Below, in pieces: positions 2,029 to 5,152 of a stretch of DNA of 5,152 bases. The DNA is from a virus. How positions within the stretch are numbered: the stretch's first letter is position 1; each line of letters begins with the position of its first letter. The translations under genes and the position numbers were made by a program. The DNA lies in UHGV virus genome UHGV-0387548; one strand, given 5' to 3'. The notes beneath the pieces are model-generated. The model worked only from the letters and a program-made list of their open reading frames with translations, had not been told where the DNA came from and made no database searches.

Positions 2029-2334
2029 TTAATTATCAAAACCGATTATAACATAAACTTCACCAAGTCCACGCTCATCATCATCAGTAGTTCTGACATA
2101 TAAATTAATCTCATAATCATCTTGCATATCATAAACAAAATCATCAACTAATGTTTTAAACATTGGATTATCAAATTTACGTCTAGACATATAAGAAGAT
2201 AAACCACACTCACCACCATCATTATAATAAAAATCAAAACTACCAAAACCATAATCTTTTAAATTATTTAAAAAATCAACTATTTTTATCATTTCTCTTC
2301 TAGTTAAAACTATTTGACCTTCTCTTAAACTCAT
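2029..2334 (-). CDS. Hypothetical acidic protein, 101 aa, translationally coupled to Rep
   Basis: It is a complete ORF in the track. It is the first gene after the large intergenic region on the coding strand. Its stop TAA overlaps the SD (TAAGGTGAT) of the Rep gene. By my count it has 20 D/E against 11 K/R residues, and it is rich in Tyr/Phe. Its SD (AGGAG) lies 14 nt from the ATG, which is a longer spacing than for the other genes. I recognise no motif in it. Confidence 0.55.
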   Translation of the reverse strand: MSLREGQIVLTRREMIKIVDFLNNLKDYGFGSFDFYYNDGGECGLSSYMSRRKFDNPMFKTLVDDFVYDMQDDYEINLYVRTTDDDERGLGEVYVIIGFDN

Positions 2335-2564
2335 CTTAATAACTCAACTCCTAATATATATTTTATTTATATTTAGAAAATTAAGTTTCAAATTAAGAAA
2401 ATATGTTTGAAAAAGTAACAAAAATGCCTTTAATTAACATTATATGTGGTTTGGTTATTGACTTGATTTAGATAAGAATTATTTAAAATAATTTTTCCTG
2501 AAAGGTTTGAAAGGATAATGTTATTTTATTTTTCTCTAATCAGCCATAATTCTTAATTACTTAA

Positions 2565-2588
2565 CTTTCTCTATTGTTTTTGTGTCAA
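2565..2588 (-). promoter_or_regulatory. Candidate sigma70-type promoter (weak -10), minus strand
   Basis: There is a perfect TTGACA at 2588..2583 (minus strand), abutting the base of the 15-bp stem-loop. After an 18-nt spacer the best -10 is only TTAAGT. This is hexamer inspection in AT-rich DNA, so false positives are likely. Confidence 0.2.
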
Positions 2589-2625
2589 GGGGCAATATAT
2601 AAAACAAGCATATATATTGCCCCTT
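2587..2625. repeat. Perfect 15-bp inverted repeat (stem-loop) with a 9-nt loop in the main intergenic region
   Basis: Plus strand: AAGGGGCAATATATA (2587-2601), loop AAACAAGCA (2602-2610), TATATATTGCCCCTT (2611-2625). The arms are exact reverse complements. There is no U/T tract after it on either strand, so it is not a canonical intrinsic terminator. It is GC-clamped at the base. Confidence 0.85.
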
Positions 2626-2660
2626 TGGGAAGAAACCCCATCGAAGTCTTTTCTCTCTCT

Positions 2661-2700
2661 TCTTGATATTAAATTACAACATAATAATTAATTTGTCAAG
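2661..2700. promoter_or_regulatory. AT-rich dyad element with a phiX174-origin-like core. It overlaps a candidate promoter (TTGACA-17-TAATTT, minus strand).
   Basis: Plus strand 2662-2674 CTTGATATTAAAT matches 11 of 12 bases of the phiX174 viral-strand origin core CTTG^ATATTAAT, as I recall it. The far end of the element (2691-2700, ATTTGTCAAG) is an imperfect inverted copy (CTTGACAAAT on the minus strand). About 25 bp of nearly pure A/T lie between the two copies. On the minus strand the same bases give a perfect -35 TTGACA (2699..2694), a 17-nt spacer and a weak -10 TAATTT (2676..2671). Confidence 0.35.
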
Positions 2701-2715
2701 TAAATAATTTTTTAT

Positions 2716-2792
2716 CGGTCTTTCTGCGACGCTAAAGACGGCTTTTAAGCATTTACAAAATATATACACGGTCTCTCGCCTCGTCGCTTTCT
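2716..2792. repeat. Two GC-rich imperfect direct repeats (iteron-like) in the AT-rich intergenic region
   Basis: Minus strand copy 1 is 2787..2769 GCGACGAGGCGAGAGACCG. Minus strand copy 2 is 2743..2717 (GCCGTCTTTA)GCGTCGCAGAAAGACCG. The shared pattern is GCG(A/T)CG ... GA(G/A)AGACCG, about 50 bp apart. Copy 2 also folds as GTCTTT (2718-2723) / AAAGAC (2734-2739) with a 10-nt loop. These are the only GC-rich islands in a ~75% AT region. Confidence 0.4.
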
Positions 2793-2795
2793 AGT

Positions 2796-2820
2796 AAAAG
2801 AAAAAAGCCCCTTTCGGGGC
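2796..2820 (-). terminator. Rho-independent terminator of the VP1/137-aa ORF transcription unit
   Basis: On the minus strand, 15 nt after the TAA stop of the 137-aa ORF, there is GCCCC-GAAA-GGGGC. This is a 5-bp all-GC stem with a GNRA tetraloop. It is followed by TTTTTTCTTTT. On the plus strand the same hairpin is followed by GGTATAGGG with no T tract, so it works in one direction only. Confidence 0.8.
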
Positions 2821-2835
2821 GGTATAGGGTGAATT

Positions 2836-3260: not shown

Positions 3261-4871
3261 CTATATTCTACCAGCAAGTAAGCTAGGGTCAGCAGTAACA
3301 GGTAATGGTCTAGTAGCTTTAATGTCAAACCAAATGTCCATAATGATATCCGGCTCGTTTGGAGCAGAAAGAACACGTTCGACCGGTGTAGTACTTTCCA
3401 AGAATTTACTGTTAAGCTTTGGTAATGTCTCGAATTTCTCCGCTAAGTGCCAGACATCAAGAGAATCAGCAACTCCAGACCTCATTTTACCAGTGATTTT
3501 GTTTACACCTTCTCTTAATTCTCTATATCTTTCTTGATATCCAAAGACAGCATCATTAGTCGCTTTATCAGCAGACAAGAATATCTCTTTATTGTAGACG
3601 GCTTGGTCACCTAAATTCCAGAAAGCTGGGTTCATATAATCCCATCTCGAAGATTTATTAAACTTTCTTGCAACACCTTGTTGGTAAGTTACATCAGCAG
3701 AGGCACAACACATAATCATAAAAATTCCATGCTCAACTGCAGAAACTTCACAAAGGTTATTATTTTGTTGTCCTACTCCTATACCTGTAAGGTTACCTTG
3801 TGGGGAAACTTCATTCGTAGCTGAGTTTTGAACAACTGGATTAATAACTATGTCCGACGTACAAGAACCTAAAAATTGACTTCTACCTAAAAGGAAATCA
3901 GGGCAAGTTACATCATAGTGCATTTTAACCAATTCTGGATATCTCTCACCAGCACGGGCATCACGTTCAAGTAATACCTGTAAAGCACTTGCTTTTCTTA
4001 AAGCTTCTACTGAAACACCTGTTACTTGAGACATATCAGCATATAAATTACCACTTGCATCATCATTATTCCAATAAGGATCGTTATCTTTACGAATAGC
4101 AGCTTTAACTGATCCACCGGCTTCGATATTCTGAATATTCATAACAACATCATTATGACCTAACGAACTCCTAGACATGATAGGAGCATTACCAACAAGA
4201 GGAATCGTAACTGCCTCACCTGATTGAGGATATGGAAGGCAAGAAGTGAAATAATCTAAAGGTTTACCTTTCTTTAGAATATTATATGTTTTTAAAGTGT
4301 CTTTATCTTCCGCTTTATCACTTATAAGATTATCACCTGTAAATTCTTTTAAAGGCTCTTGTATCTCATTTGCTCTAAACCAATCGTTCCAGATTTTATT
4401 ATAGGCTCTGAATGGTAAAGCACTGACTGTATAATCACAATTAGTACCAGTAGGAGGGCAGCCAAGATAATCAGCTAAACCACCAACAGTATTTTCTGCA
4501 ACTTTCATATTAAGTTGGGGGACTAAATAGTCATTATGGTCATCTTGCCATGTTTTTTCACCCATGAAATTTAGGAAGTGTTTCCATAATAATCTGTTTG
4601 GGACCCAGAAAGCAAAGAATTTTAATTTCACATTATCCATTACAGGAGCAATGGTAGGCATCAATCTGCAAACAGATGCAACATCTACTTCAAAATGATC
4701 ACCTGGGGAAAGTTCTTCCCAATAGACAGGATAAAGATTATCGAAATCAATACAAGTTTTTAAACCTTCACTCAAGTTAAAAGTAGACTTCATACCTTTA
4801 GCCTGAGGTAGAATGTTACTATCAAGTATCACTCTATTGGGCATCTTCATGCTAAATTTTGCACTATTCAT
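3261..4871 (-). CDS. Major capsid protein (Microviridae VP1 / phiX174 F-like jelly-roll capsid), 536 aa
   Basis: It is a 536-aa ORF. The N-terminus aligns with phiX174 F: ours M-N-S-A-K-F-S-M-K-MP-N-R against phiX M-S-N-I-Q-T-G-A-E-R-MP-H-D. Also GDHFEVDVASVCRLMP against GDSFEMDAVGALRLSP, and FFAFWVPNRLLW against FTFYVPHRHVY. The size is typical for Microviridae VP1. The ATG start overlaps the TAA stop of the upstream 32-aa ORF (TAATG). The stop is TAG 3263..3261. Confidence 0.95.
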   Translation of the reverse strand: MNSAKFSMKMPNRVILDSNILPQAKGMKSTFNLSEGLKTCIDFDNLYPVYWEELSPGDHFEVDVASVCRLMPTIAPVMDNVKLKFFAFWVPNRLLWKHFLNFMGEKTWQDDHNDYLVPQLNMKVAENTVGGLADYLGCPPTGTNCDYTVSALPFRAYNKIWNDWFRANEIQEPLKEFTGDNLISDKAEDKDTLKTYNILKKGKPLDYFTSCLPYPQSGEAVTIPLVGNAPIMSRSSLGHNDVVMNIQNIEAGGSVKAAIRKDNDPYWNNDDASGNLYADMSQVTGVSVEALRKASALQVLLERDARAGERYPELVKMHYDVTCPDFLLGRSQFLGSCTSDIVINPVVQNSATNEVSPQGNLTGIGVGQQNNNLCEVSAVEHGIFMIMCCASADVTYQQGVARKFNKSSRWDYMNPAFWNLGDQAVYNKEIFLSADKATNDAVFGYQERYRELREGVNKITGKMRSGVADSLDVWHLAEKFETLPKLNSKFLESTTPVERVLSAPNEPDIIMDIWFDIKATRPLPVTADPSLLAGRI

Positions 4872-4969: not shown

Positions 4970-5126
4970 TATTTACCTCCTCTTTTTCCAAGTTATTAAT
5001 AGCTCTAACAGCTCGTACAATGAATTCAGAAAACGAAAGATTGAACTTTTCATCTTGTAAGAAACCACCTCTTTTTAATTTTTTCAATGTCCAATAACCT
5101 TGAACAAGATCTATAACATCATTCAT
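4956..5126 (-). CDS. Hypothetical 56-aa protein (MNDVIDLVQGYWTLKKLKRGGFLQDEKFNLSFSEFIVRAVRAINNLEKEEVNNEIK)
   Basis: Translated by hand. ATG 5126..5124 is preceded by AAAGGTAGGTGATTGAA, the same 12-mer SD context (AGGTAGGTGATT) as at the VP2 start. An in-frame TAG lies just upstream, so the start is inside the window. The stop TAG 4958..4956 overlaps the start of the 32-aa ORF by 14 nt. I recognise no motif. Confidence 0.45.
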   Translation of the reverse strand: MNDVIDLVQGYWTLKKLKRGGFLQDEKFNLSFSEFIVRAVRAINNLEKEEVNNEIK

Positions 5127-5141: not shown

Positions 5142-5152
5142 TTTTAAAAACG

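Follow-up and report, generated by a model that had tools for sequence, protein, structure and literature searches.

A small viral genome carries a perfect hairpin upstream of its Rep gene, in the only non-coding region of substantial size. What is the function of this hairpin, and can a function be assigned by comparison with related genomes?

Gene organization of the window and its intergenic region

The stretch of DNA analysed here, hereafter called the window, is 5152 nt in length with a GC content of 32.5%. All substantial ORFs in the window are on the minus strand, and the main features are listed in Table 1. An ORF for a VP2-like protein (276 aa) crosses the junction between positions 5152 and 1. 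Therefore, the window corresponds to a complete circular genome of 5152 nt, and this genome belongs to a gokushovirus-like phage of the family Microviridae. In viromes from the gut and from aquatic habitats, gokushoviruses rank among the most abundant phages with single-stranded DNA. Because the strand packaged by the characterised Microviridae is of mRNA sense, the minus strand of the window was taken as the viral strand.

Table 1 Features of the window in coding-sense order.
Feature	Position	Strand	Remarks
Major capsid protein gene	3261-4871	minus	Pfam Phage_F
VP3 scaffold protein gene, Chlamydia-phage type	2836-3249	minus	Pfam Chlamy_scaf
Intrinsic terminator GCCCCGAAAGGGGC + T run	2807-2820	minus	closes the VP1-VP3 transcription unit; conserved in relatives
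Element A, second conserved structure	2726-2787	minus	flanked by the terminator and the putative promoter
Putative sigma-70-type promoter, TTGACA-17 nt-TAATTT	2671-2699	minus	-35/-10 positions conserved across 14 loci
GGGGTTTCTT box	2630-2639	minus	4 nt 5' of the hairpin; invariant in 9/9 distinct clade members
Hairpin	2587-2625	minus (coding)	15/15 perfect stem, 9-nt loop
CTTG loop core	2605-2608	minus	clade-invariant; Rep cut predicted by analogy after the G, between 2605 and 2604
GACACAAAA box	2578-2586	minus	directly 3' of the hairpin; clade-invariant; candidate Rep binding ('key') sequence
dif-like core TATAATGTTAATT, 13-mer	2432-2444	minus	approximately 130 nt past the hairpin, read in coding sense
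Rep (VP4) gene, ORF2/G2P family	1075-2019	minus	Pfam REP_ORF2-G2P, E = 3e-20

The sole large non-coding stretch of the window (2335-2835, 500 nt) is located upstream of the ORF101 and Rep genes: the terminator that follows VP3 flanks it on one side, and ORF101 and Rep on the other. When 14 loci were aligned, the order of the elements in coding sense was terminator, Element A, putative promoter, GGGGTTTCTT box, hairpin, GACACAAAA box, dif-like core, and the ribosome-binding site with the start of ORF101. The TTGACA-17 nt-TAnnnT pair of the putative promoter is conserved in position, approximately 45-60 nt upstream of the hairpin, and the copy in the window scores under the threshold of our consensus scan. 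Because this putative promoter is upstream, the hairpin is probably also transcribed, as part of the 5' leader of ORF101-Rep, if the promoter is active. Element A consists of an outer stem of 5-6 bp, an inner stem of 3-6 bp, an AT-rich apical region of approximately 29 nt and an invariant bulge of 8 nt, GTCTTTAG (2732-2739). The outer stem pairs in each of the sequences examined (12/12), three of its base pairs covary, and Element A is confined to the clade of the window. Lying in the gap between terminator and promoter, it is probably untranscribed, and it is a candidate for the complementary-strand origin.

The 13-mer TATAATGTTAATT downstream of the hairpin is also found at the locus L021, where it flanks an integrated related phage beside bacterial genes; this core is a probable attachment site. 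Kirchberger and Ochman (2020) placed dif motifs in non-coding regions and did not describe an origin. We considered whether the hairpin itself might be a dif/Xer site, and rejected this idea because the core that flanks the L021 prophage maps to 2432-2444, outside the hairpin.

Geometry, chance occurrence and stability of the hairpin

On the plus strand, the two arms of the hairpin are AAGGGGCAATATATA (2587-2601) and TATATATTGCCCCTT (2611-2625), which are complementary at all 15 positions, and the loop is at 2602-2610. Read on the minus strand, the 5' arm AAGGGGCAATATATA (2625-2611) is followed by the loop TGCTTGTTT (2610-2602) and the 3' arm TATATATTGCCCCTT (2601-2587). No other perfect inverted repeat in the window is as long as this one. 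In dinucleotide-preserving shuffles of the whole window, the longest perfect repeat was 7-12 bp and never reached 13 bp (0/300 shuffles exceeded 12 bp). The calculated DNA fold of the hairpin is -15.5 kcal/mol on either strand, and the mean for shuffled sequences is -6.3 kcal/mol (z = -4.4 and -4.9 for the two strands). No T tract follows the hairpin on either strand, and the combination of a GC-rich stem and a T/U run, by which intrinsic terminators are recognized, is not present at this site. The only terminator-like site that a scan of the window detected is the minus-strand one at 2807-2820.

An earlier sequence-only reading of this locus had described a perfect 15/15 inverted repeat with a 9-nt loop at 2587-2625, and both the coordinates and the pairing were reproduced when we recomputed them. 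Its loop sequence for the minus strand is the one given above. The same reading had judged that the repeat is very unlikely to have arisen by chance and, because of the missing T tract, that it is not a terminator; the shuffles and the terminator scan bear out both judgements. The placement of the hairpin in the only sizeable non-coding region, between a terminator and the Rep operon, also stands (2335-2835), as does the overlap of the hairpin base with a TTGACA hexamer, which is on the minus strand (plus-strand positions 2583-2588). Finally, it had named compensatory changes in related genomes as one check. As described in the next section, the hairpin is kept at this locus in relatives, and both arms covary.

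Covariation and invariant blocks in close relatives

A megablast search with the whole window against GenBank phages gave no matches. In contrast, a sensitive blastn search with the intergenic region detected three faecal Microviridae records, two of which matched precisely over the hairpin. Further sequences from IMG/VR and metagenome contigs were added by pattern scans, in which only the flanks and the base of the stem were constrained. The blastn search and the pattern scans together gave nine distinct versions of the hairpin in the clade of the window. Two of the MAFFT alignments (A2 and A4) displaced two sequences, L009 and L018, by one column. Therefore, we counted the pairs from the invariant base of the stem and from a covariance-model alignment.

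Stem pairs 1-11, numbered inward from the base, are paired in 9/9 distinct relatives. Pairs 7-11 covary with compensation (CG/GC, AT/CG/GC, AT/TA, TA/AT/GT and AT/TA, respectively). In the covariance-model alignment, 93.5% of the cells are paired and five pairs are altered on both sides. The covariation score was 0.288 as compared with 0.097 in shuffled alignments, and 0/500 shuffles equalled the observed value. As a control, we slid the 3' partners by 1-3 columns, and the pairing dropped to 33-59%. Two stems of the clade have a G.T pair when the coding strand is read; the opposite strand would have an A.C mismatch at that position. In L001, a stem mismatch proximal to the loop is G.T on the coding strand. 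The hairpin structure is under selection.

Three blocks are invariant in the clade, namely the loop core CTTGTTT, the 5' box GGGGTTTCTT and the 3' box GACACAAAA. One contig, L004, has a Rep segment that is 99% identical and does not contain the hairpin element. However, this contig is broken across the region that corresponds to window positions 2031-2738. Therefore, L004 is not a counter-example.

Resemblance to the phiX174 origin and to the phiX174 gpA protein

In the phiX174 record, the origin of viral-strand synthesis (rep_origin) is annotated at position 4306, and its sequence reads CAACTTG^ATATTAATAACACTATAGACCAC, where the caret marks the cut. The distance between CTTG and GACCAC in phiX174 is 17 nt. 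G4-like phages carry the 30-mer of this origin unchanged, alpha3-like phages carry it with 94% identity, and its location is inside gene A in every case. The loop of the window hairpin reads tGCTTGttt. Thus, the CTTG matches the core of phiX174 CAACTTG^ATA, whereas the flanks differ; distant gokushoviruses possess the full ACTTGAT. In the window, an AT-rich spacer follows the CTTG, and a GACACA sequence, the counterpart of the 3' key of phiX174 (GACCAC, 17 nt), is located 18 nt after the G. The position of the cut in the window, after the G of CTTG, is predicted solely by analogy with phiX174.

The Rep protein of the window resembles the enzyme that acts on the phiX174 origin. It has the HUH motif HFH at residues 125-127 and the sequence PYMAKYMVK with Y179 and Y183, so that the HUH motif and the two tyrosines of the YxxKY motif, which together characterise phiX174-type Rep, are both found. 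The counterparts in phiX gpA are HFH and FYVAKYVNK with Y343 and Y347, and the motifs of the window Rep align with them. A BLASTP comparison of the window Rep with phiX gpA gave E = 2e-6 over motif 1 and the HUH motif.

Other candidates for the nick site were set aside. The bulge GTCTTTAG of Element A and the 5' box GGGGTTTCTT are conserved motifs that resemble the f1 gpII site. We dropped both because they are specific to the clade, while CTTG is family-wide, as described below.

The hairpin element in distant gokushoviruses

In Chp2, phiMH2K, SpV4, KT264834 and MG945678, the longest perfect hairpin has ACTTG in its loop and is followed by a GACAC-type box on the coding strand. For example, the element of Chp2 reads CTAGCGTATAACAG tctACTTGat CTGTTATACGCTAG, and that of SpV4 reads TGGGGCATAT attACTTGttata ATATGCCCCA ttGACgAC. 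We collected a survey set of 78 IMG/VR genomes, which was seeded with Rep (Rep identity 29-43%). When IMG/VR was searched with either the Rep of the window or a narrow Rep alignment, only three or four loci were recovered, and the survey set was obtained with a broader Rep alignment. The loop of the longest hairpin contains CTTG in 41 of the 78 genomes. By far the most enriched loop tetramer is CTTG, which occurs 74 times as compared with 18 times for its complement.

We then defined a strict element as a perfect stem of at least 6 bp with CTTG in the loop and GAC[AC] 17-18 nt after the G. On the coding strand, this element was found in 59/78 genomes and in 1/234 shuffles. The loop motif common to these genomes, Chp2, phiMH2K and SpV4 can be written (A)CTTG(A/T)T. 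The consensus of the core in the surveyed elements is [C/T][T/C]A-CTTG-AT[G/A]T (YYACTTGAT). The distance from the G to GAC[AC] is 17 nt in 53/60 elements and 18 nt in 5/60, and it is thus nearly constant despite stems of 6-14 bp and loops of 8-20 nt. Only two internal stem mismatches were present among 58 distinct elements, both of them G.T on the coding strand. In 52/57 genomes, the element is 100-775 nt upstream of Rep. Five of the 78 genomes (L038, L040, L072, L074 and L079) have a canonical element whose orientation is opposite to that of all long ORFs. These inverted elements complicate the argument that the coding strand is the nicked strand. A match in Paenarthrobacter, which appeared when contigs were scanned with a DNA pattern, was a chance match and does not identify the host.

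A covariance model built from the clade of the window alone detected SpV4 (E = 3e-5), KT264834 (E = 1e-4) and several IMG/VR hairpins. This result connects the hairpin of the window with the element found across the family. The pan-gokushovirus element can be defined as a perfect or near-perfect hairpin that has CT[T/A]G in its loop and a GAC box at a distance of 17-18 nt from the G and that occupies a non-coding region upstream of Rep; all of these features are found in the window. The clade of the window departs from the family consensus at three points: G or C replaces A at position -1, T replaces A at position +1, and the spacing is 18 nt instead of 17 nt. This clade has both T at +1 and a spacing of 18 nt in common with KT264834 and MG945678, which are the nearest Rep relatives of the window outside the clade. 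The subtype of the origin follows the relatedness of Rep significantly, by a test that does not separate co-evolution from shared descent. Moreover, the element accompanies the viral Rep in very different hosts (Chlamydia, Bdellovibrio, Spiroplasma and gut bacteria), whose priming machinery differs. The box GGGGTTTCTT was not seen among distant gokushoviruses, and it is possibly an auxiliary Rep site.

The hairpin as a probable viral-strand origin

The hairpin is real, conserved and functional. We consider that it is probably the viral-strand (plus) rolling-circle origin and that its loop presents the nick site to Rep. To judge from the sequence comparisons, the best reading is that the window hairpin would be a divergent member of a hairpin-borne origin of the phiX174 type, which is common to most of the gokushoviruses examined. 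The role of a Rep hairpin fits best because its loop and 3' flank repeat the pattern of the phiX174 viral-strand origin and because the element follows the viral Rep across hosts. The sequence-only reading had called the hairpin a candidate origin element and had offered four possible roles, namely a primosome or primase recognition hairpin, a Rep recognition hairpin, a packaging signal and an RNA-level regulator of the Rep operon. The class of origin element is well supported, and Rep recognition is the role to which the phiX174-like CTTG and the GACAC box at 17-18 nt point. The proposed analogies with the G4 complementary-strand origin and the phiX n' site did not gain specific support, and the RNA-level role fared less well.

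If the hairpin is the plus origin, replication may proceed as follows. On the supercoiled double-stranded replicative form, Rep (VP4), an HUH endonuclease with two catalytic tyrosines in the YxxKY motif, would bind the 3' segment, which is constrained in sequence and consists of the 3' arm and the GACAC box. The AT-rich inverted repeat would melt or extrude, and the CTTG of the loop would become single-stranded. Rep would then cut the coding strand, which is the packaged one, directly 3' of the G in CTTG and become covalently joined to the 5' end, and the free 3'-OH left by this cut would prime a host polymerase. After one round, the regenerated origin could refold on the displaced strand and offer the loop once more, now for the cut and the ligation that terminate the round.

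The presence of the stem requires a further explanation. Because phiX174 lacks a hairpin and the linear distance from CTTG to the box is constant, Rep may read unfolded DNA. For the same reasons, the maintained complementarity of the 5' arm is not accounted for by nicking alone. The selective reason for the stem may be elsewhere, in priming, in protection of the single strand or in termination. We also put forward a joint proposal tentatively, as possible but rather doubtful in its entirety: the hairpin-borne ACTTGAT-(17 nt)-GACAC would be the hitherto unmapped plus origin of the Gokushovirinae and homologous to that of phiX174, its stem would add a second function so that the plus and minus origins are combined in one element, and the inverted elements (approximately 6%) would predict packaging of the antisense strand.

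Alternative explanations

The leading alternative to a plus origin is that the hairpin is a complementary-strand (minus) origin. In that case, the hairpin on the incoming viral strand would prime the conversion to double-stranded DNA through host primase, primosome or RNA polymerase, as modelled by phiX n'/PAS, G4 oric and plasmid sso, and this role could coexist with that of a nick site. The hairpin is very stable on the packaged strand, the few mismatches in its stem are G.T when read on the coding strand, as expected if this strand folds while single-stranded, and the constant linear spacing leaves the purpose of the stem only partly explained by nicking. However, the conserved loop and box match the plus origin of phiX174 and not the n' site, the element is kept across hosts with very different priming systems, and in the clade of the window Element A is at least an equally good candidate. 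In plasmid ssoA, the CS-6 motif TAGCGT is located in the terminal loop; a CS-6-like motif is absent from the loop of the window hairpin. A priming role has a precedent in other microvirus clades, for whose Cap-Rep hairpins Olo Ndela et al. (2022) proposed it as a role that could not be certified (PMC9865509, section 3.8). On balance, we regard a minus origin as unlikely to be the function of this hairpin. An RNA-level element in the 5' leader of ORF101-Rep, which would stabilise the transcript or regulate the expression of Rep, seems very unlikely. The -35/-10 pair upstream is conserved in all members of the clade, and the G.T pairs would be G.U in RNA. However, a search of both strands against the covariance models of Rfam 15 gave no match up to E = 1, the missing U tract speaks against an attenuator or terminator, and the context differs elsewhere: the hairpin of L043 directly follows a terminator, and those of L038 and L040 are antisense. 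The invariant loop and the box at a fixed distance fit a DNA origin instead.

The TTGACA at the base of the stem raises another question, because this perfect hexamer could be the -35 element of a Rep promoter with the palindrome as its operator. There is a precedent in pUB110, where Rep bound at the origin silences rep from a position beside its own promoter (PMC5703833). We tested the hexamer as a sigma-70 -35 element and rejected it: none of the relatives has a conserved -10 element at a distance of 16-18 nt downstream, and the promoter scan does not call the site. Moreover, the box in distant relatives is (G)TGACACC and not TTGACA, by which this explanation is largely refuted. The stem-base TTGACA belongs to the GACAC box and not to a -35 element, and we consider transcriptional control by the hairpin extremely improbable. 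An attachment site of the Xer/dif type or a DNA packaging signal must also be considered. This is a temperate lineage, with a dif-like core at a distance of only approximately 130 nt from the hairpin. In CTX phage, single-strand hairpins form the attachment site. However, the stem is unlike the 13-nt core that flanks the L021 prophage, and the same hairpin is present in the lytic phages Chp2, phiMH2K and SpV4. As for packaging, this process is coupled to Rep-driven synthesis in microviruses such as phiX174, and to our knowledge no separate signal is needed. There is only a very slight chance that integration or packaging is the function of the hairpin. The viral-strand origin with its nick site in the loop remains our preferred explanation.

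Significance

An anonymous palindrome in the window can now be given a functional annotation, and the 500-nt region is resolved into six parts: a terminator, a second structured element, a putative promoter, the probable origin hairpin, a dif-like site and a ribosome-binding site. The family-wide pattern is a more interesting result than the window hairpin alone. The putative origin is narrowed to an element of 60 nt with a predicted cut site, and the prediction is testable with one purified protein and one oligonucleotide. Such an element could serve as a non-coding marker by which metagenomic microvirus genomes are oriented and circularised, and it would be the cis element needed for gokushovirus phagemids or replicons. 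The shared origin core links the two best-known microvirus subfamilies. Our literature search found no paper that states where gokushovirus Rep starts replication and no account of a gokushovirus origin hairpin; the original papers on Chp2 and phiMH2K were outside the scope of this search, and an earlier mention is possible.

Comparison with known origins

In CRESS-DNA viruses, as in our reading of the window, an HUH Rep nicks the loop of a conserved intergenic stem-loop beside rep. In contrast to the window, their nick site is an unrelated nonanucleotide motif, for example TAATATT^AC, iterons flank the stem and the hosts are eukaryotic. Furthermore, their Reps possess a single catalytic tyrosine and a fused helicase, unlike the window Rep.

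The intergenic region of the Ff phages (f1/M13) contains a terminator, several hairpins, a plus origin in which gpII nicks within a hairpin, and a separate minus origin. The window resembles Ff in that one non-coding region combines a terminator and several hairpins, and the window Rep falls into a Pfam family whose name refers to ORF2/G2P. The differences are that the Ff nick sequence is TTCTTT^AATA, that Ff has a packaging hairpin and that the origin role in the window is a predicted one.

Rolling-circle plasmids offer another close parallel in design. The nick site of the pC194/pUB110 family is CTTGATA. In pT181 (the IR-II cruciform) and pMV158 (the nic locus), as would be the case in the window, a palindrome exposes the nick site, a Rep site is adjacent and the origin is upstream of rep. 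The standard arrangement of such plasmids is a nick site in an extruded palindrome with an adjoining Rep site; their origins are often upstream of rep, and cleavage depends on supercoiling (PMC5703833). Unlike the window, these replicons are plasmids and not phages, their Rep proteins belong to the Rep_trans, Rep_2 and Rep_1 families, and they carry copy-control elements, which are absent from the window.

Among microviruses, reekeekee- and roodoodoo-microviruses possess conserved Cap-Rep hairpins with compensatory changes in the stems, according to the section on these hairpins in Olo Ndela et al. (2022; PMC9865509). These hairpins resemble that of the window in their location between the capsid-side genes and Rep and in their conserved loop, and the roles given there are candidate roles. 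They differ in that they belong to other clades and in that the same section favours negative-strand priming and reports no link to the phiX origin.

The closest counterpart is the gpA-cut origin of phiX174 and the other Bullavirinae (30 bp). Like the window, it has CTTG on the viral strand, an AT-rich segment after it and, at a distance of 17-18 nt from the G, a GAC(A/C)C box, and gpA shares the HUH and YxxKY motifs with the window Rep. The window reads GCTTGTTT where phiX174 has AACTTGAT, with a spacing of 18 nt as compared with 17 nt. In phiX174, no inverted repeat surrounds the site and the origin is inside gene A. In contrast, the predicted site of the window is in the loop of a hairpin, in an intergenic region upstream of Rep.

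Conserved features around the probable origin hairpin

Features of the window and the inverted putative origin elements of two surveyed gokushoviruses, L038 and L040
Feature	Position	Strand	Remarks
Element A	window 2726-2787	minus	second conserved structure, with the terminator on one side and the putative promoter on the other
TTGACA-17 nt-TAATTT	window 2671-2699	minus	position kept in all clade members
GGGGTTTCTT box	window 2630-2639	minus	3-5 nt upstream of the hairpin
dif-like core	window 2432-2444		in coding sense, some 130 nt past the hairpin; same as the 13-mer flanking the L021 phage copy
Inverted element, L038	about 1039-1079	opposite to all long ORFs	
Inverted element, L040	about 5029-5067	opposite to all long ORFs	

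Element A is restricted to the window clade. Its outer stem is 5-6 bp long (GCGACG/CGTCGC) and occurs in covarying versions, namely CGGCG/CGCCG, GCGGAG/CTCCGC, GCGGGG/CCCCGC and ACGGCA/TGCCGT. The inner stem is GGCNN/NNGCC, the apical region of about 29 nt is AT-rich, and the 8-nt bulge, GTCTTTAG, is invariant. Element A may act as a complementary-strand origin.

The TTGACA-17 nt-TAATTT pair, whose -10 hexamer is replaced by TATATT, TATACT or TAAACT within the clade, probably serves ORF101-Rep as its promoter. If it does, the origin hairpin would fall within the transcribed leader. Closer to the hairpin, the GGGGTTTCTT box is invariant across every clade member; it was not found in distant gokushoviruses.

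Orientation and loop core of the probable origin element

In 5 of the 78 surveyed genomes (L038, L040, L072, L074 and L079), the canonical element is opposite in strand to all long ORFs. These inverted elements have the hairpin, the ACTTGAT loop and, with 17-nt spacing, the GACAC box. On the coding strand of L038 and L040, a T run comes after this hairpin, which thereby resembles a terminator located 3' of Rep. The inverted elements predict either packaging of the antisense strand or a hairpin with a dual use.

In the loop of some otherwise canonical elements (L008 1708-1742, L057, L083 and L092), ACTTGAT is replaced by ACTAGAT. ACTAGAT is a naturally occurring version of the presumed recognition core; the L091 and L092 elements have identical stems and differ in the loop as ACTTGAT versus ACTAGAT. 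The linear "partial genome" record L003 (MG945195, 4777-4807) stops precisely at ...AAGGGGCGTAATACCCTTG, which is where the cut after the G of CTTG is predicted. This end may be a coincidence, the assembly having broken in the palindrome; alternatively, it may be a trace of nicked molecules.

At the contig ends of L081 (4437-4453) and L083 (4680-4696), an identical 15-bp palindrome, GATCGTGACTGGGAA acgt TTCCCAGTCACGATC, was observed. It begins at most about 17 nt from the contig end, is complete only on circular reading, and seems to derive from an adapter or from the assembly, not from a phage.

A dif-like core

In contig L021, a related phage copy (5951-11189) is joined to bacterial genes (radical SAM, RpiR, NagB-like, NagA-like and AAA_14), and the 13-mer TATAATGTTAATT is present on both of its flanks. 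Because the window shares this core, its lineage is probably temperate, with Xer/dif-style integration. The 13-mer resembles the XerD arm of dif.
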